The notes: a model not told the origin generated them from the sequence alone. A stretch of DNA of 64,000 nt from Desulfobacteraceae bacterium (GCA_020633955.1 JACKCP010000006.1:34404-98403); one strand, 5' to 3'. Positions 1,778 to 30,551 are shown, numbered from the stretch's first letter. Program-made: numbers and translations.

Positions 1778-2383
1778 TTATTTTTTTTTCTCAATTTTTT
1801 CATAAATATCCGGATACTGGCTTTTCACACAGTCCGGACACATTCCATGGGAAAATTTTGCGTAGGACCTTTCTTCCACATACTTCTCCACATCTTCCCA
1901 GAACCCCTTGTCATCCCTTATTTTTTTACAGCAGGCACAAATTGGAATAAAACCTTTCAGGGTTTTAATCTCCTCTCTTGAGCGTTTCAGTTCAACATGG
2001 GTATTTACCCTTGCAAGAAGTTCCCTGTGGTTAAAGGGCTTTGTTATATAATCAACACCTCCTGTTTCAAAACCCTTGACAATATCATCCTCTCCAGTCT
2101 TTGCAGTAAGAAAAATAACCGGAATATTTTTTGTGATTTCGTCCTTTTTCAGAAGAGAGCATACCTCAAAACCGTCCATAACTGGCATCATTATATCAAG
2201 AAGAATAAGATCCGGCTGTTTTTCCTTTGCAAGTTTAAGTGCTGTCTGGCCGTCTCCAACAAGGGAAAGATTGTATCCGTTTTTCCCAAGAATTTTACCA
2301 ACAACCTGAAGATTTTTTGAATTATCATCAACTGCCATAACCAGAGGCTCTTTTTCATTTAATTCTGTCATGATTCCTCTCAA
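1778..2383 (-). CDS. Response regulator: receiver domain plus C-terminal Cys4 module
   Basis: Canonical REC motifs are present: VMAVDDNSKNL, PDLILLDIMMPVMDG, IFLTAK, ITKPF. The C-terminus is IPICACCKKIRDDKGFWEDVEKYVEERSYAKFSHGMCPDC. The start could instead be the ATG at 2371. The gene overlaps the stop of the upstream kinase gene. Confidence 0.85.
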   Translation of the reverse strand: MRGIMTELNEKEPLVMAVDDNSKNLQVVGKILGKNGYNLSLVGDGQTALKLAKEKQPDLILLDIMMPVMDGFEVCSLLKKDEITKNIPVIFLTAKTGEDDIVKGFETGGVDYITKPFNHRELLARVNTHVELKRSREEIKTLKGFIPICACCKKIRDDKGFWEDVEKYVEERSYAKFSHGMCPDCVKSQYPDIYEKIEKKK

Positions 2384-4823
2384 GATTTTTTTTCACATCC
2401 CTCACAAGCACCGGATAAATTTTTATTATTTCATTAAAGCCATCAATATCAAAATCCTCTGCATAGCCTTTTATATCTTTCCCATAAATTATAAAGCAGT
2501 CTGCTCTGAATTTTTCTCCTGCCTCAATAAGTTCATCTGCAAAGTCCGATACATCAGAAAAAATAAAATTATTCCTGACATCCATCCATTTATTCATCAA
2601 TACCAAATCAAATACCTCACAAAACTTTTCAAAACTGTATTCATAACTTTGACTTATCTTAAAAGAATCTTCTTCCTTAAAATATCCTGAATCCTTTTTT
2701 GTGTGAACCACAGCATTTAAATCCCTTGAATAAGGTATGAATTTTATCAGTTCAGATACAAGCAAGTCCCTTGTAAAAGGCTTTTCAAGAAACCCAGATA
2801 TCCCCTTGCTTTTAATTAATTTAACGTCTCCTGAAACTGCAATCACCATTACTTTTTTTATAAGCTGATTTTGCTCCAGATACTCAATTACGTCCATACT
2901 TTTACTGTCATTAAGATTCATATTCAAAAGAATTATATCAGGAAGTCTTTTTCTTAAAAAATTAATTGTCTGCAGTGAATCTGAAGTCTGAAAAAGTCTT
3001 ACTCCAAAAGGTTTTAAAAGATATGAAACAAGTTCCCTGTCTGAAGAATCATGGTCTGCAATGAGTATTTCAGTCTTTTTTAAAAACATAACTGATGAAA
3101 AACATTTTGAATATTTATAATTTCCAAGTTCAGACTGCTCCACAAGCGCAACATCTCTCAGCAGCACCCTGAAGCTGCTTCCAAAGCCCGCCTTTGAATC
3201 AAGGGTTATCTCTCCTTTCATCATTTCAGCAAGTTTTTTTGCAATTGCAAGCCCAAGACCTGTTCCACCATATTCCCTTGAATCCTGTCCGTTCTGCTGT
3301 GTAAATGGCTCAAAAATTTTTGAGTGCTGATCAAGAGGTATGCCTATTCCTGAATCTTTTACTTCAATTACAATATCTGCTTTTTTTATCACGCCTTCCC
3401 TGAACACCGGATATAAAAAAAGATTTACAAACCCTTTTTCTGTAAATTTAAGTGAATTGCTTAAAAGATTTACAATAATCTGCTTTACCCTCAGCTCATC
3501 AAGAAGAAGATATTTTGGAGTTGAAGGATCTATTATAAGATTGAATTCAAGTTTTTTTTCATTTGCAGTAATTTCAAGTTCAGATTTTACAATATCCAAA
3601 ATATTTCTCAAATCGCAAGGCTGATAATATATTTCAAAACGCCCTGACTCAATTTTTGACATATCAAGAATATCGTCAATAAGATTAAGAAGAGCTTTTC
3701 CTGAATTTTTAATATTTTCTATATATTTTTTTGCTCTTGGGGTTAAATCCTCTTCATTAAGGATTTCTGCAAATCCAAGGACTGAATTCATTGGAGTTCT
3801 GATTTCATGCGAAACATTGGCAAGAAATTTTGATTTTGCAGCGTCCGCCTCATGGGCTTTTTTCATGGCAGCTTCTGCTTCTTTTTTTGCACTGCCAAGC
3901 TCTATTGCTTTTTTTCTCCATGAAAGAAAAAGAAAAAGCATCAAAAAAAACAAACCAAGAGATAAAAAAAATGCTCCAATAAAAACCCGGTCTACAAAAA
4001 ATCTTTTATATTTAAATTGAATCCACTTATTATCAATCTCCTCTTTTTTTTTATCACTGATTGAATTTAAAGATTTTTCAAGAATTGACTGCAAAATCTC
4101 ATGCTTTTTGTTCACACCAAAACACAAATCATACTCATAATCTAAAATCTCGCTAACCCTCACATTTCCTATCATATTTTTTGACTTAAAATATAAAAGA
4201 ACTGGAATATTGGTTATTACTCCGTCAATTTTTCCCATGGAAAGTAAAAAAATTGATTCAAGAATATTATCTGTATATTCAATTATAATATCAGGATAAT
4301 TTTCTCTTATATACCCCTCTGCTGCATATCCTTTTATAAGACCTATTTTTTTTCTGCTCATTTTTTTTAAATGCAGATCCCTGGTGGCCTCTGAGCTTAT
4401 TACAAGAATATTTTGAACTTTTATATATGGAGAAGTGAAATTAAGATATTTTTGTCTTTCCTTTGTATTCTGTACCGAACTTATAAGATCAGCTTCATTG
4501 TTTTTCATTACATCAAGGGCTTCCTGCCAGGTTAAGGTAAAGACATATTTAAATTTAAGGCCTGTAATTTTTGATATTTCCTTTAAATAATCTGAGGCAA
4601 CACCCATATGGGCAGATTTTTTAAGATCAGTAAAATCTATTGGCGCAAAATTAGGGGCAGGAACCACCCTGATCTCTGGATTTGATTTAATCCACTCCTT
4701 TTCCATTTTTGATAAAGTGAGTTTTTTGTGATCGTCTTTAATAAAATAAATCATTAAAAAAAAGATTAAAACCAAAAGAGGAGACAATAATATAAGAATA
4801 AGCCTGAAACTTTTTTTTTCCAT
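2355..4823 (-). CDS. Hybrid sensor histidine kinase with periplasmic solute-binding (SBP family 3-like) domain, HisKA, HATPase_c, a pseudo-receiver and a C-terminal helical domain
   Basis: An N-terminal TM segment is followed by a periplasmic region (IRVVPAPNFAPIDFTD...) and a second TM segment. The H-box is FLANVSHEIRTPMNSV, and the N/G boxes are NLLSNSLKFT, DSGIGIP and GGTGLGLAIA. The receiver-like region is EILIADHD...PDIILLNMNLND. Confidence 0.85.
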   Translation of the reverse strand: MEKKSFRLILILLSPLLVLIFFLMIYFIKDDHKKLTLSKMEKEWIKSNPEIRVVPAPNFAPIDFTDLKKSAHMGVASDYLKEISKITGLKFKYVFTLTWQEALDVMKNNEADLISSVQNTKERQKYLNFTSPYIKVQNILVISSEATRDLHLKKMSRKKIGLIKGYAAEGYIRENYPDIIIEYTDNILESIFLLSMGKIDGVITNIPVLLYFKSKNMIGNVRVSEILDYEYDLCFGVNKKHEILQSILEKSLNSISDKKKEEIDNKWIQFKYKRFFVDRVFIGAFFLSLGLFFLMLFLFLSWRKKAIELGSAKKEAEAAMKKAHEADAAKSKFLANVSHEIRTPMNSVLGFAEILNEEDLTPRAKKYIENIKNSGKALLNLIDDILDMSKIESGRFEIYYQPCDLRNILDIVKSELEITANEKKLEFNLIIDPSTPKYLLLDELRVKQIIVNLLSNSLKFTEKGFVNLFLYPVFREGVIKKADIVIEVKDSGIGIPLDQHSKIFEPFTQQNGQDSREYGGTGLGLAIAKKLAEMMKGEITLDSKAGFGSSFRVLLRDVALVEQSELGNYKYSKCFSSVMFLKKTEILIADHDSSDRELVSYLLKPFGVRLFQTSDSLQTINFLRKRLPDIILLNMNLNDSKSMDVIEYLEQNQLIKKVMVIAVSGDVKLIKSKGISGFLEKPFTRDLLVSELIKFIPYSRDLNAVVHTKKDSGYFKEEDSFKISQSYEYSFEKFCEVFDLVLMNKWMDVRNNFIFSDVSDFADELIEAGEKFRADCFIIYGKDIKGYAEDFDIDGFNEIIKIYPVLVRDVKKNLERNHDRIK

Positions 4824-7984: not shown

Positions 7985-10900
7985 TTGGAGAAAGATTTGA
8001 ATAATCCAACAAACCCTAACACTGAAACCCATCTTAACAATTCAAAAAATGAGAAAATCACTGATCTCATAATATCTGGGTACAAGCTCAACAAAATAAT
8101 TTATGAGGGTAAAATCTCAAAGATAATAAGAGGTTTTGACACTTTAAAGAAGCAGCCTGTTGTAATTAAAATACTAAATCCGGAAGAAGTTTCACCCATT
8201 CAGACAATGAGGTTCAGGCAGGATTTTGAAATAAGAAAACACCTTGAATCTGATTTTATTGTAAAAGCATACACTTTCCAGTTTTATCACCACAGGCCCT
8301 TCATTGTAATGGAAGACTTTAATGCAAAATGTCTTAATACACTCTTCAAGACCAGTCAGCCACATGTCTCACAGTTTTACTCCATTGCTGAAAAAAGCCT
8401 TGAAGCACTTGAATACATCCATAAAAAAGAAGTCATCCACAAAGATATCAAGCCATGCAATATACTTTTGAATGATGAAACAGGAGTTGTGAAATTAACT
8501 GATTTCGGCATCTCAACTATGCTTTTTCAGGAGCATCCATCTTTTCTTAATCCAAGATCACTTGAAGGCACAATTGGTTTTATTTCTCCTGAACAGACCG
8601 GAAGAATGAACAGGTTCCTCGACTATAGGACAGATTTCTATTCAATTGGCGCAACATTTTATTTTCTATTGTCAGGCCATCCACCTTTTTCCGAAGATTC
8701 GCCAATGGCAATGATCCACGCACATTTAGCAAAGGAGGCAATGCCGCTTTATCTGGTCAATAAAGATGTCCCCTTTTCCCTTTCTGAAATTATAATGAAG
8801 CTCCTTTCAAAAAACCCTGAAGACAGATACCAGAGTATTGAAGGAATTTTATCTGACCTTAAAAAATCTGAAGAGATATTTAAAAGCGGTGAAAAAAATA
8901 AAACCTTTGCCCTTGGAAAAACAGATTTTTCAGAAAAATTTACAATACCTGAAAAAATTTACGGTAGAAAAAAAGAACTTAACTCTTTAATTGAATCCTT
9001 TTTCAAAATCAAAGGAGGATCAGATGAGATTGCAATTATTGAAGGCTATTCAGGATCAGGAAAAACAGTAATTGTTAAGGAACTGCAAAAACAGATTTCT
9101 GATCCAGACTGTTATTTTATCTCAGGAAAATACGAGGAATTCTCTGAAAGTCAGGCATACAGAGGGATAATCCAGGCCTTTGAAGAGCTTATTTCAGAAA
9201 TTCTTGGAGAGAACCAGGATACAATTAATAATTTCAAAAGTGAAATTTCCAGATCAATAGGTGAAAACGGAAAAATACTTACTGATCTTTTTCCGAAACT
9301 TCAAATTATTACAGGTCCTCAAAAAGAAATTCCAAACCTTGGGGTTTCTGAAACAAGAAGCAGATTTAATTATACATTCCGGGAGTTTGTCAAGATTTTC
9401 ACAAAAAACCAGAGAAAACTAATTTTATTCCTTGACGACATGCAGTGGATAGACTCTGCTTCTCTAGGTCTTTTAAAGGCTCTTTTTTCTGGAGAAAAAA
9501 TTAAAAATTTTCTATTTATAGGATCATACAGAAAAGACGAAGTAAACAGCAGCCATCCAGTTTCAATTTTTTTAGAAGAAACAAAAAAACAAAATGAAAA
9601 TGTAAATACAATAGAACTGAAGCCTCTTTCTTTTAAGGATACACTTGATCTTGTTTCAGACACAGTTATCTGCGAAAAATCCAGGGCCTATAAATTATGC
9701 GAACTTATATTCAATAAAACTGGAGCAAACCCATTTTTCATTAAAGAATTTCTCATGTCTCTTTACAGAGAAAGACTTATTTCATTCAGCAAAAATACAA
9801 AAAAATGGGAATGGGATATTGAAAAAATAAAGTCACAGAATATAACCCAAAACGTTGTTTCACTCCTTATTGACAGAATAGAAAAACTACCGGAAAAATC
9901 ACTTGATATTTTAAAAAAGGCAGCATGCATTGGAAGCAGAACAAGTTACAAAAAACTTTTTTCTGTCTGTGAGATGAGAGAAAAAGAGTTTAACATTTAT
10001 CTATTTGAAATATTAAAACAAGGTATGCTTATACCTGTTTCCGGATACAGCCCGGATCAAAATACTGATCCTGAAAAAACTGACATAAAAAAAAATATAA
10101 GGCCCGATTATATTTTCCAGCACGACAGACTGCGCCAGGCAGCCTATGAAACCATAAAAAAGGAAAATAGAACATCAATCCATCTTTCCATAGGAAAGAA
10201 ATTCTTTGAAATTGCAGATAAAGATTTTTTTGAACAAAACCTTTTTGAAATTGTAAACCATATGAACGAAGGCAGAGAGCTTTTAGCAGATAATGACGAC
10301 TTTGACCTTCTTGTTCACCTAAATTATATTTCAGGCAAAAAAGCTAAAAATTCAGGTGCCTACCAGAGAGCTCTCAAATATTTTGAAATCACCCGGTCAA
10401 TTCTGCCCCAAAACAATAATGACATTTTTTACAAAACAGTATTAAAAGAGCTTGCTGAAACAAAATATCTGTGCGGAGAACTTCAGGAATCAAGAAAAAT
10501 ACTTGAAGATCTTTTAGTTTCCGAAAAAGACATAATAGAAAAATGCAGAATTTATGAGCTTTTAATTTTAATATGCACAATGAGCGCAAGCTATGACGAG
10601 GCACTCATAACTGGTAAAACAGCCCTTGATCTTCTTGAGGTAAATCTGCCAATAGAAAATATTGAGTCTGAAACTTCAACAGAAGTTGCCAAAGCAATTA
10701 AAAAACTAAAAAAATCCCAAATAAAAAAACTTATAAACACACCTGAAGCCAAAGATCCTAAAATCAGAACTGCAATGAAAATTCTCATAAGACTTCAGGC
10801 AACCTCATATTTTTTCAAGACAAACCTTTATCCCTTTATTCTTGCAAAAATGGTTAACTTATCACTAGATTACGGACATACTCCAGAATCTGCTAAAGGT

Positions 10901-13900
10901 TATGCAAGTTTTGGCAATATTTACTCAAACAAAACAAAAGATTATAAAACGGCCTACGAACTTGGAACACTGGGACTGAACCTGAGTAGAAAATTCAGGG
11001 ACAAAAAGATTGAATGCCAGTCAAGGCTTTCAATTGCCGCATTTCTTATTCACGGTGTTGATCATCTTAAAGAAGGTGAGGATCATATTTTTCAGGGATA
11101 TCAGTCGGGACTTGAATCCGGTGAAATTCAATATGCAGGACTTCTTTTGTTCAACAAAATTCTAAACAGATTTTTTCAGGGATACAGACTTGATTATCTG
11201 GAAAAAGAAATTAATGATGATCTGAACTTCTGCATAAAAACAGGAAACAGCATAGCAATTGATGTAATAACACCATTTAGACTTGCAGTTTTGAATCTAA
11301 GAAAAAAAACAAAAAATCCATTTGATTTTTCAGATGAATGCTGTTCATTCAATGACTATTATGAAAAAATGACAAAAAATCAAAGCATGCCTGCACTTTT
11401 TCTTCTATGGCTTTTAAAGGCATTTGTATTGTATCTGAACGGCAAAATACAAAACGCGGCAAATGCAATATCAAAGGCTGAAAAATACTGGGCTGCAACA
11501 ACAGGATATTTTTCAGACACAGAATACCTTTTTTTGAAGGCACTCATACTGGCTTCAGTGTTCAAGGATTCAGATAATGATGAAAAACAGGAAATACTTG
11601 AAACAATAAAAAATATTTCCCAGATTCTTAAGCACAAGTCTTTGACCGCACCTCAAAATCATCTTTCAAGACACTATCTTGTTGAAGCAGAGTTTTACAG
11701 GATTAAAGGAGAGAATGAAACAGCTTCAAACTTTTATGACCAGGCAGTTGAATCAGCATCTCAATATGATTTTATTCAGATTGAGGCCATTGCAAATGAA
11801 CTTTGCGCAAATTTCTGGACAGACCTGAATAAAAAGAAACTCTCAAGGCCATACCTTGAAGATGCCTGCGAAGCTTATGAAAAATGGGGTGCTCTGAGAA
11901 AAATTAAAAGCCTTGAAAAAAATCTGCCGGGTTATTCATCAAAAACCACCAAACTCCAGCTATTCAATACCCAGACCTCAAGTTACCCTGATTCTGAAAT
12001 TGATTATTCATCAGCACTTGATATGGAGTCAGTGGCAAAAACATCCAGGGTTATTTCAAGCGAAGTCAACATTGAAAAACTCCTTAAAAAATTAATGAGG
12101 ATAATGATTGAAAGTGCAGGAGCACAAAAGGGATTCATTATTTTAAAAAAGGGAGAGTCTCTTTACATCCAGGCCTATTCCGACTCCAAAACAGTAAATG
12201 TACTTCAGGCTAAACCAATTGACAAAACAGATGAAATAGCAGAGTCAGTTGTAAGATATGTAATTCATACTTCTGAAGATGTAATAGTAGATGATATTTC
12301 TACAAATACAAAGTTTAACAGTGACAGATGGCTTAGAAAAAACAATTCCGGCTCTCTTTTGTGCACACCTTTAAAGTATAAGGACAAAACAATTGGAGCC
12401 CTTTATCTTGAAAACAGTATTGCCACCAGGGTTTTTTCAGGAGAAAGGCTTAGAATTCTAAAATATCTTTTACCACAGGCAGCAATATCAATTGATAATG
12501 CCATAATATTTGCAGAAACTGCAAAACTAACAAAAAGCCTTGAAAAAGAAGTTGAACACAGGAAAAAAATACAGGAAGAACTTGAAAAAAGCGAACAAAA
12601 ATACAGAGAAATATTTGAAAATACAAGAGATATTTACATTGAAACTGCAATTGACGGAACAATCATTGAGGTAAGTCCTTCAGTTGTTGAATCAGCTGGC
12701 TATACAAGGGAAGAGCTGGTTGGTGAAAAAGTGAGCAGAAGATATATCGATCCCGCTGATCAAAAAAGTTTAATGGAAAATTTATTTAAATTCGGCAAAG
12801 TTTCAAATTTTGAAGCAAAGTGCAAAACAAAAAACAACAACTTTGCAGATTCTTCAATAAATGCAATGGTAATAAAAGACAAAAATGGAAAGCCCGAAAA
12901 AGTAATTGTCTCAATAAGAGACATAACTGAAAAAAAACAGCTTGAGTTAAAACTTTTCCACTCACAGAAAATGGAGGCAATAGGAACTCTTGCAGGCGGA
13001 ATAGCCCATGATTTTAATAATATCCTGGCAGGAATAACAGGATATACAGATATTGCCAAACTTAAGCTGAAAAAAGAACCTGAAAAAATCCCCATCTACC
13101 TTGATGGAATATCAAGGGCTGGTGAAAGAGCAAAAAATCTTGTTAGCCAGATTTTATCTTTCACAAGAAACACCGAAACAAAAAGAAAGAACATAAACCC
13201 TCTTCCAGTTATAAAGGAAGCATTGAAACTTCTAAGATCATCGATTCCCTCATCCATTGAAATGGTGGAGGAAATTAAAACAAAGGCACCTCTTATAAAA
13301 GGCAACACAACCCAGCTTCATCAGGTGATAATGAATCTTTGCACCAATGCAGCCCACTCAATGAAAGAAACCGGAGGTGTGCTTACAACAAGAATAGAAA
13401 CAATTAATATTAATAAAAACAACCTGTTTGAAACAAGCTTTGGAGAAATCACCCCAGGAGATTACCTGAAAATAAGCGTAAAAGACACGGGCCACGGAAT
13501 TCAGGAACAAATTGGAGCAAAAATTTTTGACCCATATTTCACAACTAAAAAAACAGGCGAAGGAACAGGGCTTGGACTTTCAATGGTACATGGAATTGTT
13601 AAAAACCATGGAGGATATTTAAAATTCTCAAGCATACCAGATAAAGGTACCTGTTTTGAAATTTATTTTCCACTTGCCCAGGAATTCATGAAACAGCCAA
13701 AGCAGAAAAAACACTACAATCCAATAACCGGAGGCGAGCAAATCCTTTTTGTAGACGATGAGGAGATTCTTGCCGAACTCATGGAAGAGCTGCTTCAGGA
13801 ATCAGGCTACAAAGTTAAATGTGTCAACAGTTCAGTTGAAGCCTTGAACCTGTTTAATGAGAATCCAGATAAATATGATATAATTATTACTGATATGACC

Positions 13901-14107
13901 ATGCCGGTAATGACAGGAGTTAAACTCTGCAAGGAAATCTTTAAAGTAAGACCGGATATTCCTGCCATAATATGCACTGGATATTCAGAAGCTATCCCGG
14001 AAAAATCATTTGAAAATACAGGAATAAGAAAAAAACTTTTAAAACCATTTAATATTGAGGAACTTAACACTGCAATAAGAGATATTCTTGAAGAAAATAA
14101 ACACTAA
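7985..14107 (+). CDS. Giant multidomain sensor: Ser/Thr protein kinase - P-loop NTPase (AAA_16/STAND-like) - helical repeats - GAF - PAS - HisKA/HATPase_c - receiver
   Basis: STK motifs: VIHKDIKPCNILL, LTDFGIS, GFISPEQ. NTPase motifs: IIEGYSGSGKTVIV (Walker A), LILFLDDMQWID (Walker B). A GAF region lies near SRVISSEVNIEKLLKKLM and a PAS domain near YREIFENTRDIY. The H-box is GGIAHDFNNIL and the G-box is GEGTGLGLSMV. The REC domain reads ILFVDDEE...DIIITDMTMPVMTG...LKPF. The start is TTG at 7985 or TTG at 7997; the latter has GGAG 6 nt upstream. Confidence 0.88.
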   Translation: MEKDLNNPTNPNTETHLNNSKNEKITDLIISGYKLNKIIYEGKISKIIRGFDTLKKQPVVIKILNPEEVSPIQTMRFRQDFEIRKHLESDFIVKAYTFQFYHHRPFIVMEDFNAKCLNTLFKTSQPHVSQFYSIAEKSLEALEYIHKKEVIHKDIKPCNILLNDETGVVKLTDFGISTMLFQEHPSFLNPRSLEGTIGFISPEQTGRMNRFLDYRTDFYSIGATFYFLLSGHPPFSEDSPMAMIHAHLAKEAMPLYLVNKDVPFSLSEIIMKLLSKNPEDRYQSIEGILSDLKKSEEIFKSGEKNKTFALGKTDFSEKFTIPEKIYGRKKELNSLIESFFKIKGGSDEIAIIEGYSGSGKTVIVKELQKQISDPDCYFISGKYEEFSESQAYRGIIQAFEELISEILGENQDTINNFKSEISRSIGENGKILTDLFPKLQIITGPQKEIPNLGVSETRSRFNYTFREFVKIFTKNQRKLILFLDDMQWIDSASLGLLKALFSGEKIKNFLFIGSYRKDEVNSSHPVSIFLEETKKQNENVNTIELKPLSFKDTLDLVSDTVICEKSRAYKLCELIFNKTGANPFFIKEFLMSLYRERLISFSKNTKKWEWDIEKIKSQNITQNVVSLLIDRIEKLPEKSLDILKKAACIGSRTSYKKLFSVCEMREKEFNIYLFEILKQGMLIPVSGYSPDQNTDPEKTDIKKNIRPDYIFQHDRLRQAAYETIKKENRTSIHLSIGKKFFEIADKDFFEQNLFEIVNHMNEGRELLADNDDFDLLVHLNYISGKKAKNSGAYQRALKYFEITRSILPQNNNDIFYKTVLKELAETKYLCGELQESRKILEDLLVSEKDIIEKCRIYELLILICTMSASYDEALITGKTALDLLEVNLPIENIESETSTEVAKAIKKLKKSQIKKLINTPEAKDPKIRTAMKILIRLQATSYFFKTNLYPFILAKMVNLSLDYGHTPESAKGYASFGNIYSNKTKDYKTAYELGTLGLNLSRKFRDKKIECQSRLSIAAFLIHGVDHLKEGEDHIFQGYQSGLESGEIQYAGLLLFNKILNRFFQGYRLDYLEKEINDDLNFCIKTGNSIAIDVITPFRLAVLNLRKKTKNPFDFSDECCSFNDYYEKMTKNQSMPALFLLWLLKAFVLYLNGKIQNAANAISKAEKYWAATTGYFSDTEYLFLKALILASVFKDSDNDEKQEILETIKNISQILKHKSLTAPQNHLSRHYLVEAEFYRIKGENETASNFYDQAVESASQYDFIQIEAIANELCANFWTDLNKKKLSRPYLEDACEAYEKWGALRKIKSLEKNLPGYSSKTTKLQLFNTQTSSYPDSEIDYSSALDMESVAKTSRVISSEVNIEKLLKKLMRIMIESAGAQKGFIILKKGESLYIQAYSDSKTVNVLQAKPIDKTDEIAESVVRYVIHTSEDVIVDDISTNTKFNSDRWLRKNNSGSLLCTPLKYKDKTIGALYLENSIATRVFSGERLRILKYLLPQAAISIDNAIIFAETAKLTKSLEKEVEHRKKIQEELEKSEQKYREIFENTRDIYIETAIDGTIIEVSPSVVESAGYTREELVGEKVSRRYIDPADQKSLMENLFKFGKVSNFEAKCKTKNNNFADSSINAMVIKDKNGKPEKVIVSIRDITEKKQLELKLFHSQKMEAIGTLAGGIAHDFNNILAGITGYTDIAKLKLKKEPEKIPIYLDGISRAGERAKNLVSQILSFTRNTETKRKNINPLPVIKEALKLLRSSIPSSIEMVEEIKTKAPLIKGNTTQLHQVIMNLCTNAAHSMKETGGVLTTRIETININKNNLFETSFGEITPGDYLKISVKDTGHGIQEQIGAKIFDPYFTTKKTGEGTGLGLSMVHGIVKNHGGYLKFSSIPDKGTCFEIYFPLAQEFMKQPKQKKHYNPITGGEQILFVDDEEILAELMEELLQESGYKVKCVNSSVEALNLFNENPDKYDIIITDMTMPVMTGVKLCKEIFKVRPDIPAIICTGYSEAIPEKSFENTGIRKKLLKPFNIEELNTAIRDILEENKH

Positions 14108-22623: not shown

Positions 22624-24321
22624 TCACTTTAAAACAAATAATGAAATATATTTTGCATCAATATTTTTCAAATCAACAGCTCCAAGCTCTTCCTCAACCT
22701 GCACGAAAAGCTCATCAAATACTTTTCCAAGTCTTTCAAGAAGATGTTCCGGATTTATTTCGGTAATTCTTACAATCCAGTTTAAAAAGTCCTGCTTTTT
22801 TTCTTTTCCAGGAGTTTTTATACCCTTATCTTCAACCCACAGCCATTGATAAAATTTTCTGAAGTCTTTAATTTCAATGGGTTGAAAAACATTATCATCA
22901 AGGTGAAGCCAGTCCCTTGCCCAAAGAGTCAAAATAAAATTCTGCCAGTTTATGAAAATGTCATCTGTTGTTATTTCTTTTACTCCCATAAGACCGAGAA
23001 GATCATCAACAGCAGATATTTTTTCCAGTTCTTTTTGAGTATTCATTATTTCATCTATTGAAGAAAAATCTTTGTACAGGCTGGATGAATTTTCATAATT
23101 ATCAAAATAAACAGCAGGCCATGCCAGAAGCCCACCGGTTATTCCAAACCATTTTTCTCCAAGAAAACTTAAATTAAGTGAATTTTTTAAAATAAATGAA
23201 TTACTTTGCCATTTCAGAACTTTTTCCCTCAAGTTTCTGACAAGGGTGTTTCCAGCCTTAAAAATATCCATAACATGATAACTTGACAGAACTGATTCCA
23301 TATATTTTTTTTCACTTGTTTTTTCAGTAAAACCGCCAAGATACTGGGAACCAATTTTCAGCAGCCCTGATATACGCTTCACAAGTCGTGAAAGATCCTC
23401 CCTTGTTCTGATTTTTTTATTTTCAGCAGAAATTATCTGATTAAATAAAGAGACAAATTCAAGGGAAAAATCATCTGGATTGAGCAGATAATTATTTACT
23501 GAAAAAATATCAATTACCTGGCTCGAATTTATATCTCCTTTCTCATCAACAAAAATATTATCAAAAGAGCTGTTTTTTGCTGATCTTTTTTTAATATTTT
23601 TCAAATTTACCGGAGCCAAAACTTCAACTGCTTCATGGGATGGAATAATTCCTTTTTCCTCGAGTCTTGCATTTCTGAACCTGAAAAGGTGTTCCTGGTG
23701 CTCGGCGTTTATTACACCGGCGGAAATAAATAAAATAGTCTGAAAATCCCTGTATGACCTGTCTGCAATCCTTCCAAGAATATCATAAACAAGGCTGTTT
23801 ATTTCAATTGGAAGATTCTTGTCTTCCGCAGATTCAAGAACTTTAAAATAAATAACATCATCAAATGTAACAAAATCATCTGGAATTTCAGAAGGATCCT
23901 GGTCATGCTCACGTAAGACTACATCAATTCTGTTTCTTAAAAAATATGTCAGAAAATCTTCCTGATCATCAAGAAGCCAGTCTGAAAGCCTTTTGGGATC
24001 TGCCATATGAAGCACTCCAAGCCAGTAAGAAGCAGTTGATATATTTATTTCATCCTTTTCCCAGATTTCAAGGTCTACAATATATTCCCACTGTTTTTTG
24101 CTGGCCATGGATAAAATCGGCAGAAAATCTTCGTGCCCGGCTTCATGCATGAGCATGTAAAGGGATTGTTCCGGGAAAGAATGAACAAGAGCGTAACTTT
24201 CATTATGGTCAAGAATCTCTTCTATAGCCCTGGCAGGATCCATTTTAAGAATTGATTCCCTTTTTTTCCTTAAAGCTTCAATTTTTTTTTCAACAATGTT
24301 CAAAGCATTTTTTTCCGTCAT
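22624..24321 (-). CDS. Conserved-looking hypothetical protein, 565 aa, no recognisable catalytic motif
   Basis: Long uninterrupted ORF with coding-like composition. I could not identify any motif. Confidence 0.6.
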   Translation of the reverse strand: MTEKNALNIVEKKIEALRKKRESILKMDPARAIEEILDHNESYALVHSFPEQSLYMLMHEAGHEDFLPILSMASKKQWEYIVDLEIWEKDEINISTASYWLGVLHMADPKRLSDWLLDDQEDFLTYFLRNRIDVVLREHDQDPSEIPDDFVTFDDVIYFKVLESAEDKNLPIEINSLVYDILGRIADRSYRDFQTILFISAGVINAEHQEHLFRFRNARLEEKGIIPSHEAVEVLAPVNLKNIKKRSAKNSSFDNIFVDEKGDINSSQVIDIFSVNNYLLNPDDFSLEFVSLFNQIISAENKKIRTREDLSRLVKRISGLLKIGSQYLGGFTEKTSEKKYMESVLSSYHVMDIFKAGNTLVRNLREKVLKWQSNSFILKNSLNLSFLGEKWFGITGGLLAWPAVYFDNYENSSSLYKDFSSIDEIMNTQKELEKISAVDDLLGLMGVKEITTDDIFINWQNFILTLWARDWLHLDDNVFQPIEIKDFRKFYQWLWVEDKGIKTPGKEKKQDFLNWIVRITEINPEHLLERLGKVFDELFVQVEEELGAVDLKNIDAKYISLFVLK

Positions 24322-27734: not shown

Positions 27735-28388
27735 ATGACTAAAACAATAGAACAAAAAATAGCATCAAATGAAAAAAGATACAGGGTAATTGCCGAGTCT
27801 CTTATTGATAATGTGTGGGTTATAGATGCGGAAACATACAGGTTTTTATATATAAGTACAGATGCATATGAAACAAGGGGATATACCCAAAAGGAACTTA
27901 TAGGCCATACTGCCGATGTCTTTTTTTCAAAAGACTCCTTTGAAAAATTAAAATCACTGGTAAATGAAGCAAAAAATAAATTTCAGACTGGAATTACAAC
28001 CTCACATAAGCTTGAAACTGAAATCATAAAAAAAGATCAAACAACAACCTGGATTGAAATAAGTGCAAAGCTTGTAAAAGATGAAGACGACGGCCGGCTC
28101 AAAATAATTGGTCTTTCAAAGGACATTAATTTAAGAAAGGCTGCTGAAAAAGAAAAGGAAAAAATTCTTTCTGAGCTTGAAACCGCTCTTAAGGAAAAAG
28201 AAAAGCTTTTAGATCAGATAAAAAAGCTTGAAACCCTTTTACCCATTTGTGCTTCCTGCAGAAGAATACGAGATAATTCAGACAAAAAATGGTGGCCTTT
28301 TGAAAAATACATTGAAGAAAAATCAGAGTCAAAGTTCAGCCATACTCTTTGCCCCGACTGCCAGGAAATTCTTTATTCAAAAAAATAA
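27735..28388 (+). CDS. PAS-domain protein with coiled coil and C-terminal Cys4 module
   Basis: PAS domain (ESLIDNVWVIDAETYRFLYIS...), then a KEKEK coiled coil, then LPICASCRRIRDNSDKKWWPFEKYIEEKSESKFSHTLCPDC. This last module is homologous to the C-terminus of the response regulator at 1778-2383. Confidence 0.8.
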   Translation: MTKTIEQKIASNEKRYRVIAESLIDNVWVIDAETYRFLYISTDAYETRGYTQKELIGHTADVFFSKDSFEKLKSLVNEAKNKFQTGITTSHKLETEIIKKDQTTTWIEISAKLVKDEDDGRLKIIGLSKDINLRKAAEKEKEKILSELETALKEKEKLLDQIKKLETLLPICASCRRIRDNSDKKWWPFEKYIEEKSESKFSHTLCPDCQEILYSKK

Positions 28389-29357: not shown

Positions 29358-30551
29358 TTAGAATTTATCTACAAGATAATCCCTTTCAAAAAAAAGCTTT
29401 CTCACTTTAAAAAAAGCAGATTCAGATACACTGAGCTCATTATTTCTTTTTTTTAAAAAGCCAGAATTTAAGAGATCCAAAATCATATTTTTACAGCTAG
29501 ATTTTGAAAATGGAAGAATTTTTATAAGAATATCATGAGAAATACTCCCATGAAGCATAATTGTATGAAGAATAATTACGGACTCATCTCCAGGTACTGA
29601 TGAAAAAACCGGTTCAGAAATATCAGGAATAACCCAGATAAGAGTTTCATTTAATCCTTTTTTAACAGAGGGAATCAAGTCATTGTGACCTGAGCTGTTA
29701 TTTTCCAGACGAAGACTGTCTTTCCAGAATTTTAAAGAGAGAAAAATATTTCCTCTGCAATAAGCAGCAATTTTTGTAATTAATGGATCTGCAGCTTCAT
29801 TTTTTGAGACGGTCCCTCCTATTTTCCTGCCGTTTGAAATATTTAAAAATTTGAATTTTGTATAACTTGCCCCACCTGAAGAAGCAGCAATCATTCTGAT
29901 TAATTTTTCACCGTCAAAAGACTGTAAGGTTATTGAATTTTTTAAAGGGAGTTTCAAAACCATCTGGAGATAAGCCCATGGAAAACTATGGCACCCGATA
30001 ACTCCCTTTCCAAGCTCACCATTTTCTGCCAAATGCAGTAATTTTCTGATTTTTTTCAATCCATTCACATGACGGATAAAATATTTTTCAAGCTCCGGTA
30101 TTACCCATATTCTGCCCTCTTCAGGAAGATTAAAAGAAAGTTTATCAAAATCAGAAAAAATGTCTTCACTGGATGGAGGGGAAATAACACATGCATCGTT
30201 ATTTTCTGCCCATAACCTTAATATTTCGGAATTTTTAGAACAGTGCTGTCCTACAACATAAGTCACATAATTTTTTGTATCATGATTTTCAAGCCAGCCT
30301 TCAAGGCACTCTCCCAACGCATCTGATAAATCCTTTAAATTAACGTCAGGTGCAACAAATTTTTCAAGCCTGTCAGGAAGGACAAACAAGTCCTGCTCAC
30401 TGCCTTTGAACATTTCTTCATGCTTGTTATTATTGAAAGCAAAAAAATTTTTTAGGGATTTAAATGTATTTTCAGCCAGACTTACTGTAGGTATTGGAGG
30501 AATGCAATAGTTTCCAATGGGAACATATTCATAAATATTTCCTTGTTTCAT
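29358..30551 (-). CDS. Hypothetical protein, 397 aa; possibly a degenerate P-loop-like fold plus a C-terminal winged-helix-like region
   Basis: Uninterrupted ORF 21 nt upstream of the MscS gene. VVGQHCSKNS and RIWVIPELE look like decayed Walker A/B motifs, judged by eye only. Confidence 0.55.
   Translation of the reverse strand: MKQGNIYEYVPIGNYCIPPIPTVSLAENTFKSLKNFFAFNNNKHEEMFKGSEQDLFVLPDRLEKFVAPDVNLKDLSDALGECLEGWLENHDTKNYVTYVVGQHCSKNSEILRLWAENNDACVISPPSSEDIFSDFDKLSFNLPEEGRIWVIPELEKYFIRHVNGLKKIRKLLHLAENGELGKGVIGCHSFPWAYLQMVLKLPLKNSITLQSFDGEKLIRMIAASSGGASYTKFKFLNISNGRKIGGTVSKNEAADPLITKIAAYCRGNIFLSLKFWKDSLRLENNSSGHNDLIPSVKKGLNETLIWVIPDISEPVFSSVPGDESVIILHTIMLHGSISHDILIKILPFSKSSCKNMILDLLNSGFLKKRNNELSVSESAFFKVRKLFFERDYLVDKF

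Follow-up and report, generated by a model that had tools for sequence, protein, structure and literature searches.

A Cys4 module at the ends of a response regulator and a PAS protein of a Desulfobacteraceae bacterium: apparently an unnamed family of modular signaling output domains

Features of the locus

The window analyzed here, a stretch of 64,000 nucleotides from a Desulfobacteraceae bacterium (GCA_020633955.1, JACKCP010000006.1:34404-98403), encodes a response regulator and a PAS protein that end in the same small module with four cysteines (Cys4 module). The positions of genes, domains and module copies, counted from the first letter of the window, are listed in Table 1. For the response regulator the start annotated by NCBI is the ATG at 2371, which gives a protein of 197 amino acids (aa) named 'response regulator' from a Desulfobacteraceae metagenome-assembled genome (MAG); the sequence P0275 is 100% identical to this 197-aa form. 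In a Pfam scan the receiver (REC) domain scored 105.7 bits against PF00072 (cut-off 30.2) and no second domain was reported. The acidic pair (VDD), the context of the phospho-acceptor (LLDIMMP), the threonine in FLTAK and the lysine in TKPF are all present. A Foldseek search with a model of the full-length protein returned PleD and OmpR-family receivers as the best matches, at about 41% identity (E 1e-13 for the PleD receiver), and these matches were confined to the REC part. The gene of a hybrid histidine kinase overlaps the start of the regulator gene, the adjacency by which two-component systems are recognized, and the REC part of the response regulator is a genuine PF00072 receiver encoded in a two-component operon.

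The original prediction had placed a Cys4 module at 1829-1951, which coincides exactly with residues F145 to C185 of the response regulator (FIPICACCKKIRDDKGFWEDVEKYVEERSYAKFSHGMCPDC), and had reported the same module at the end of the PAS protein, two CxxC pairs lying about 30 residues apart. All three statements agree with the data. The second copy has the core LLPICASCRRIRDNSDKKWWPFEKYIEEKSESKFSHTLCPDC at 28236-28361 and ends a protein that is identical to NCBI MCB9481124.1 ('PAS domain S-box protein', Desulfobacteraceae MAG) and is a one-component-type sensor. The two tails share 29 of 56 residues (52%; BLASTP, E 2e-19); their CxxC pairs are separated by 29 residues in the response regulator and by 30 in the PAS copy, owing to a one-residue insertion in the loop. 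With all filters of the hidden Markov model (HMM) search switched off, no further segment in six-frame translation of the window exceeded 7 bits to the family HMM, and a regular-expression scan agreed, so that the window holds exactly two module copies. Given the pairwise E-value and the HMM scores of the two copies (Table 1), as compared with 7 bits or less elsewhere, their resemblance reflects homology and not chance.

Table 1. Features of the two module-bearing loci in the 64,000-nucleotide window
Feature	Position	Strand	Description
Response regulator gene	1778..2383	-	201-aa open reading frame (ORF) from TTG 2383; REC, coiled-coil linker and Cys4 module
REC domain	2003..2341	-	Residues 15-127; Pfam PF00072, E 2e-30; intact DD / D / T / K
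REC alpha5 and coiled-coil linker	1952..2041	-	K115 (KP motif) to G144; 34 residues from K to Cys1
Full conserved module, IKTLKG-FIPIC..C...W...FSH..CPDC...YP	1811..1969	-	Residues 139-191; 118 bits to family HMM
Module core, as first predicted	1829-1951	-	F145-C185; Cys149, Cys152, Cys182, Cys185
Hybrid histidine kinase gene, cognate	2355..4823	-	SBP_bac_3 periplasmic sensor, HisKA, HATPase_c, REC (Pfam); 3' end overlaps start of response regulator gene
Second carrier (PAS protein)	27735..28388	+	PAS (residues 27-131; Pfam PAS_9, E 3e-12), 42-residue helical linker and Cys4 module
Module copy 2, IKKLET-LLPICASC...CPDC...YS	28218..28379	+	92 bits to family HMM; T replaces hinge G

Family size, distribution and conservation

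A profile built from 18 modules (65 positions) was compared exhaustively, using HMMER, with 1.84 billion representative sequences at the 50% identity level. Matches with E<=1e-3 were obtained in 24,121 cluster representatives, 19,800 of them with E<=1e-10, and the match lay nearly always at the extreme C-terminus. In the databases these homologues are named 'response regulator', 'PAS domain S-box protein', 'sensor with HAMP domain' or 'hypothetical protein', and their precomputed Pfam annotation covers the N-terminal domains only (PF00072 alone for the response regulator homologues, '-' for the short ones).

The taxonomic distribution was determined from the best 80 loci of at least 600 matches in a scan of one genome per GTDB species. 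The majority of these 80 loci belong to the Desulfobacterota; the others come from Nitrospirota, Nitrospinota, Chloroflexota, Ignavibacteria/Bacteroidota, Calditrichota, Spirochaetota (including Leptospirales), Planctomycetota, Lentisphaerae and other members of the Planctomycetes-Verrucomicrobia-Chlamydiae group, Zixibacteria, Hydrogenedentota, Cloacimonadota, Gemmatimonadota and Neomarinimicrobiota, together with one actinomycete. Among 72,556 plasmids a single module remnant was found, disrupted by an insertion sequence: in Dongshaea marina NZ_CP028898.1 (831-4138; locus L088) an IS21 transposase lies between a GAF-domain gene and the unannotated remnant. One REC-module regulator (P0361) is filed under the eukaryote Anaeramoba ignava (transcriptome) and probably stems from a bacterial symbiont or contaminant.

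Conservation was determined on 492 unique modules picked by HMM and not by motif. The four cysteines are present in 491, 491, 492 and 492 of these, the tryptophan in all 492 and the proline before Cys1 in 489, which bears out the module on the point that had been named beforehand as a possible refutation, namely a lack of cysteine conservation among homologues. The histidine of the FSH motif occurs in 457 of the 492 (93%), and the exceptions are mostly internal copies of two-module MASE6 proteins. Since those copies lose the histidine yet retain all four cysteines, the pattern points to the cysteines as metal ligands and to a histidine that would be functional but not structural. Of 358 modules, 353 have 29 residues between the CxxC and the CPxC pair; the others, the PAS copy of the window among them, have 30. 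Among 451 modules selected by regular expression, R is conserved at 98%, the DD pair at 90/97%, G at 99%, E at 96%, Y at 97% and F at 96%. Counted from Cys1 as position 0, the non-ligand polar positions conserved above 90% are K4, R7, D8, D9, G11, E17, Y19, F28 and S29. The net charge of the module is close to zero (mean -0.3, standard deviation 1.6).

Domain architectures

Companion domains were determined by Pfam in two censuses, of 104 representative and 76 genome-derived module proteins. Cytoplasmic companions are PAS (the commonest), REC (about 10-15%), GAF, PrpR_N and Tll0287-like domains, whereas membrane-bound or periplasmic companions comprise HAMP, dCache/sCache, CHASE/CHASE3/CHASE4, MASE3, MASE6, VUPS, HisKA_7TM, Reg_prop/Y_Y_Y and SBP_bac_3. 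The module is thus a modular unit, as had been proposed from its attachment to REC and PAS, and the range of its input domains is much wider than those two. Helix-turn-helix (HTH), HisKA/HATPase_c, GGDEF, EAL and cyclase domains were absent from the 25 most frequent of the 41 and 51 families in the two censuses, and eight long members (535-1405 aa) scanned over their whole length showed input domains only and no known output. Ten members were scanned singly, one of which (P0023, 398 aa) gave no Pfam match at all. At least one transmembrane segment was predicted, by a simple hydropathy criterion, in 42% and 63% of the two samples. Given the input-only companions and the transmembrane segments, the module sits in the output position, the site that is occupied in other sensors by kinases, GGDEF domains or the signaling domains of methyl-accepting chemotaxis proteins (MCP).

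A minority of members are tandem [sensor-module]x2 fusions. The two-module proteins (P0033-P0061) are about 500-550 aa long, and the one that was scanned (P0030) has the architecture [MASE6-module]x2; most of these proteins have a copy, as a rule the internal one, that is without the FSH histidine and the YP tail, yet keeps the four cysteines and the tryptophan. P0162 has the order GAF-module-REC, with the module inside the protein and a receiver behind it, an arrangement reminiscent of hybrid kinases in which a REC domain comes after the transmitter.

Short ORFs composed of a coil plus the module dominated one of the searches; for the most part they are pieces of genes or PAS gene ends set off by a frameshift. 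Stand-alone proteins of this kind were considered and rejected: three were checked on long contigs, of which two proved to be such frameshifted PAS gene ends and the other seems to be what is left of a truncated gene. In the two former cases (L081, 3077-4330, and L083, 3460-4342, both from long-read MAGs) a PAS ORF lies upstream and directly adjoins or overlaps the module ORF, which has about 110 aa; each pair most likely stems from one gene split by a frameshift artefact. In the third (L082, 3477-6099) a 107-aa coil-plus-module ORF lies between an ArsR-type HTH gene and genes for Pyr_redox_2 (sulfide:quinone-reductase-like) and DsrE; a link to sulfur metabolism or a truncated remnant are both possible.

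Heptad-quantized linker

Regarding the distance from the beta5 lysine of the KP motif to Cys1, values of 34, 41, 48 or 55 residues were found in 13 of 13 REC-linked members. Among the 120 closest homologues of the response regulator, 119 of which carry the module, the distance was 27 (one protein), 34 (97), 41 (9), 48 (11) or 55 (one). All 132 of the 132 REC-module linkers thus equal 6 modulo 7, and the response regulator of the window belongs to the 34-residue class, the commonest. In PAS-linked members the motif D[IVL][TS]x[RKQ][KR] lies 35 residues before Cys1 in 71 of 73 cases and 42 residues before it in the PAS copy of the window. The last heptads follow the consensus L-x-x-A-L-x-x-[IV]-K-T-L-x-G (a..de..a..d and then a glycine, which is conserved at 97%).

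Linkers with these properties have been described for 1,991 Rec-GGDEF proteins, in which the KP-anchored lengths come in multiples of 7 and the last heptad has an ambiguous axxdexx pattern (PMC8041772). From crystal structures of DgcR both features are explained by a switch of coiled-coil register upon phosphorylation, which re-orients the two effector domains about a hinge (PMC8041772). More generally, linkers of five heptads (S-helices, or signaling helices) typically precede effector domains (PMC1592074). The module proteins display the features by which register-switch coupling is recognized in PMC8041772, discrete lengths in multiples of 7 and an a..de.. heptad, which speak for a mode of coupling and not for homology. 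From these common linker features we infer, by analogy, that the Cys4 module is regulated like Rec-GGDEF and works as a pair. The output role suggested in the original prediction fits this picture, the module being the sole non-sensor part of proteins of up to 1405 aa and standing behind a heptad-phased signaling helix.

Structure prediction and search for a named domain

The AlphaFold 2 model of the full-length response regulator (predicted local distance difference test, pLDDT, 89.2) has a single continuous helix over residues 115-135 in the 197-aa numbering, alpha5 extending without a break into the linker. In the model of the module alone (pLDDT 83.9) a central helix is predicted, the first cysteine pair lies at the end of a strand, the CPxC pair lies at the N-terminus of a helix, and strands surround the histidine of FSH. 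The predicted secondary-structure string suggests a site made of a knuckle and a helix N-terminus, similar to a treble clef. The description 'zinc-ribbon-like' in the original prediction is plausible in this light, two knuckles with invariant cysteines being present; it is imprecise in that the string hints at the treble-clef-like arrangement, and the identity of the metal comes by inference.

The module of the response regulator yielded no match in Pfam-A even at E<=10. The PAS copy gave sub-threshold matches only, to DUF3039 (17.8 bits, cut-off 22.7) and Zn_ribbon_ACC, both on the CPDC knuckle. Scans of the module and of the full proteins with NCBIfam gave nothing significant (best E 0.31), PDB sequences searched with the single sequence (phmmer) and the profile (hmmsearch) gave chance matches only (best E 0.13), and Foldseek with the module model returned nothing with E<1 from PDB or BFVD. 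That no known function could be assigned, as had been stated at the outset, holds after these searches, in which the module matched no characterized domain; the family is apparently an unnamed, new one of modular signaling output domains.

Individual motifs were compared with known ones and the candidates rejected. Rubredoxin was considered for its equal CxxC-x29-CPxC spacing; in hhalign the probability was 2.6% with the CPxC alone aligned (the rubredoxin sequence being presumably that of C. pasteurianum), the Pfam HMMs Rubredoxin and zf-HC2 were silent on the module, no rubredoxin was among the Foldseek results, and rubredoxin is without the central helix that is predicted in the module. The c-type heme motif CxxCH is absent from the module sequence, and the GGDEF I-site RxxD is absent from KKIRDDK. 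An H-box of histidine kinases was considered for FSH; there is no HisKA match in Pfam and a strand is predicted at this place. The anti-sigma factors of the ZAS type (zf-HC2) have H-x3-C-x2-C where the module has H-x2-C-x2-C; PF13490 did not match, and strands are predicted around the histidine. DksA/TraR (PF01258) and FlgZ (zf-RING_7, PF02591) gave no match at E<=10 and no match to a PDB sequence or fold.

Comparison with known systems

In their mode of coupling the module proteins are like Rec-GGDEF or PAS-GGDEF proteins. The closest resemblance is to Rec-GGDEF cyclases of the DgcR/WspR type, with which they share the PleD/OmpR-like receiver, the continuation of alpha5 into a parallel coiled coil, distances from the KP motif to the effector in multiples of 7, the ambiguous a..de.. 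last heptad, a short hinge before the effector, a similar repertoire of inputs (PAS, GAF, HAMP, REC, MASE, Cache) and a comparable proportion of members bound to the membrane. They differ in the effector, which is a GGDEF domain of about 160 aa in the one case and a Cys4 module of about 45 aa, with no GGDEF HMM match and no known catalytic activity, in the other. DksA/TraR proteins combine a coiled coil with a small Cys4 domain, spaced CxxC-x17-CxxC, that binds a universal hub (RNA polymerase), and could serve, by analogy, as a model for many paralogues having one target in common; unlike the module, DksA/TraR is without sensor fusions. ANTAR is likewise a small output (about 50 aa) that follows a coiled coil and is fused to REC, PAS or GAF, but it is all-helical, metal-free and cytoplasmic, and the module has no ANTAR HMM match. 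FlgZ/HP0958, the coil of which is an antiparallel hairpin, lacks sensor-domain fusions, and its HMM does not match the module. Its likeness lies in a coiled coil followed by a CXXC...CXXC zinc site that binds a protein or RNA partner (DUF164, zf-RING_7; protection of sigma-54; PMC3372290). HalOD2, an output domain of halobacterial response regulators, has a helical segment and then two conserved CXXC motifs with predicted zinc binding (PMC5847659); set apart here by its published description only, it has a spacing of 20-25 residues, whereas the module has 29, and is found in a few halobacteria, as opposed to more than 24,000 bacterial clusters. HalOD2, FlgZ/HP0958, DksA/TraR, ANTAR and ZAS are the nearest analogues, and the only logic they have in common is a coil joined to a small, or small Cys-rich, output domain.

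Proposed function and alternatives

The reading that we favor, and regard as evenly poised between right and wrong, is that the module is a Zn(Cys4)-stabilized dimeric effector domain that is switched by coiled-coil register and engages one target common to the paralogues. The metal is most probably zinc bound by the four cysteines, because these are invariant and their spacing is fixed. In the response regulator, the upstream hybrid kinase would phosphorylate the REC aspartate, whereas in paralogues a ligand or light would be sensed by PAS, GAF or HAMP. The REC dimer would then rearrange and the parallel coiled coil of alpha5 and the linker would shift its register. As the linker always has 6 modulo 7 residues, this shift would arrive in a fixed phase at the conserved hinge (L-x-G) and re-orient the two Cys4 modules, one arrangement of which would expose or assemble the invariant polar face (C-KKIRDD-x-G-Y-W, E-x-Y, F-S-H) for binding of the target. 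Dimer geometry would, on this reading, be the variable that is controlled in signaling by the module. A single cellular component common to the paralogues, whether a protein hub or a small ligand, is the probable target rather than DNA specific to a gene, because the face is nearly identical across paralogues and phyla, the charge is neutral and many members are tethered to the membrane.

Several points weigh against this reading. The invariant histidine together with the acidic pair could mean chemistry (catalysis or ligand binding) rather than docking. Among 81 neighbors at the 80 loci 151 Pfam families were counted, none of them present in more than nine neighbors, so that there is no conserved non-signaling neighbor, and in an all-versus-all BLASTP of 618 neighboring ORFs only PAS, REC and histidine kinase proteins clustered and no partner gene emerged. 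The AlphaFold 2 models are of the monomer, in which a dimer interface is not seen. The 150 best matches and the 80 loci lean toward consensus-like members, which may overstate conservation for the family as a whole; it is judged to be general because 82% of all matches were better than E 1e-10 on the 65-position profile. No published description of the module was found in the full-text literature, motif strings included, InterPro and most subscription journals lying outside this survey, and the status 'undescribed' is accordingly provisional.

Were the module a nucleic-acid-binding zinc finger, its carriers would be transcription factors or RNA-binding antiterminator-like regulators with dimeric fingers switched by the coiled coil. 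Two CxxC knuckles on a dimeric coil do resemble predicted response regulator outputs such as the archaeal HalOD2 (PMC5847659). There is a likeness to RNA binders made of a coil plus a small domain, such as ANTAR, a K, K, R and K are conserved in the loop after the first knuckle, and a heptad-phased dimer would suit a palindromic site. A net charge of about zero fits this poorly, however, and the surface that would serve recognition is near-invariant over thousands of paralogues and phyla, unlike gene-specific operators. Neither an HTH-like nor a known DNA-binding finger HMM matched in Pfam, and at the 80 loci no candidate target genes are conserved next to the module genes. Roughly half of the members, moreover, are membrane-anchored sensors with HAMP, Cache or MASE domains, and membrane anchoring is, to our knowledge, unusual among DNA-binding outputs; the finger is considered unlikely. 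A slightly lower probability is given to a minimal catalytic or ligand-binding unit, two of which would combine into a composite site for the synthesis, breakdown or binding of a messenger of the nucleotide type, in the manner of GGDEF and class III cyclase dimers. It draws on the linker rule, which in Rec-GGDEF serves to align two half-sites, and on the invariant K-K-x-R-D-D-x-G-aromatic-W and S-H, a pattern that is found in ligand-binding or active sites more typically than on surfaces for docking. A diffusible output would be needed by the members tethered to the membrane, and at one orthologous locus the response regulator stands in an operon alongside two REC-GGDEF genes. A unit of about 45 residues is nevertheless far below the size of any known nucleotide cyclase or hydrolase, neither Foldseek nor the PDB profile search revealed similarity to enzyme folds, and the loss of the histidine in internal modules of two-module proteins, with cysteines and tryptophan kept, speaks against a catalytic role.

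That the module is itself the sensor, a redox- or metal-responsive center (a zinc-thiolate switch, a rubredoxin-type Fe(Cys)4 site or an Fe-S site), would leave its proteins without any output, and linkers in heptad phase behind REC, PAS or HAMP domains are the hallmark of coupling to an effector. The CxxC and CPxC motifs, the conserved histidine, the match in spacing and second knuckle to rubredoxin and the concentration of the family in anaerobe-rich phyla among the best 80 loci are in its favor, and switches of the Zn-CxxC type are a known signaling device (PMC3184428). The comparison with rubredoxin found no support by hhalign, by HMM or by fold, however, and the conserved non-ligand polar residues (R, DD, G, W, E, Y, S) would be superfluous for a simple metal site; we hold this sensor to be fairly improbable, a shade more so than the composite site. 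The least probable is a structural clasp, with the proteins acting through PAS or REC as phosphate sinks or heterodimerizing decoys. Small zinc sites do often merely stabilize folds, single-domain REC proteins serving as phosphate sinks are known, and short coil-plus-module ORFs occur; the three of these that were checked are, however, the two frameshift artefacts and the probable remnant described above. About 20 near-invariant surface-type residues and a fixed heptad phase are unnecessary for a clasp, and members that reach or exceed 1000 aa and have large periplasmic sensors end in the module and nothing else.

Beyond the effector reading, the module might constitute an unrecognized major transmitter class beside histidine kinases, GGDEF/EAL, cyclases and MCP, with many sensors converging on a single hub, which we put forward tentatively and as the less likely outcome. 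If it holds, hundreds of sensors per community would converge via a register-switched pair of 45-residue zinc modules, and the hub might be a universal protein, for instance RNA polymerase, a sigma factor or a protease; alternatively, a small messenger might be bound or made by the dimer of modules. From its extreme conservation the surface of the module is predicted to have a single common target, and the fixed heptad phase provides a concrete, testable structural hypothesis. Censuses of signal transduction sort proteins by output domain, and those that carry the module alone appear under the labels 'PAS domain protein', 'response regulator' or 'hypothetical' and are therefore counted as sensors without known output. 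With more than 24,000 clusters across many phyla, the family represents a considerable gap in the maps of regulation drawn for anaerobes of environmental importance, and a named HMM for the module would improve annotation at once.

Genomic context

At four orthologous loci the response regulator gene is the last gene and directly follows that of a large multi-domain sensor protein, which has the arrangement HisKA-HATPase_c-REC in at least two of the four. In the hybrid kinase of the window the last 120 or so residues beyond the REC domain (2355-2720, minus strand) have no Pfam match and could be a divergent HPt domain that feeds the REC-Cys4 regulator. Elsewhere in the window a 2040-aa protein (7985-14107, plus strand) combines a Ser/Thr protein kinase, an AAA_16 ATPase, a long unassigned region, GAF, PAS, HisKA, HATPase_c and REC. 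A 565-aa DUF6178 protein is encoded at 22624-24321 (minus strand), and a 397-aa ORF without Pfam match (29358-30551, minus strand) adjoins the gene of a mechanosensitive channel.

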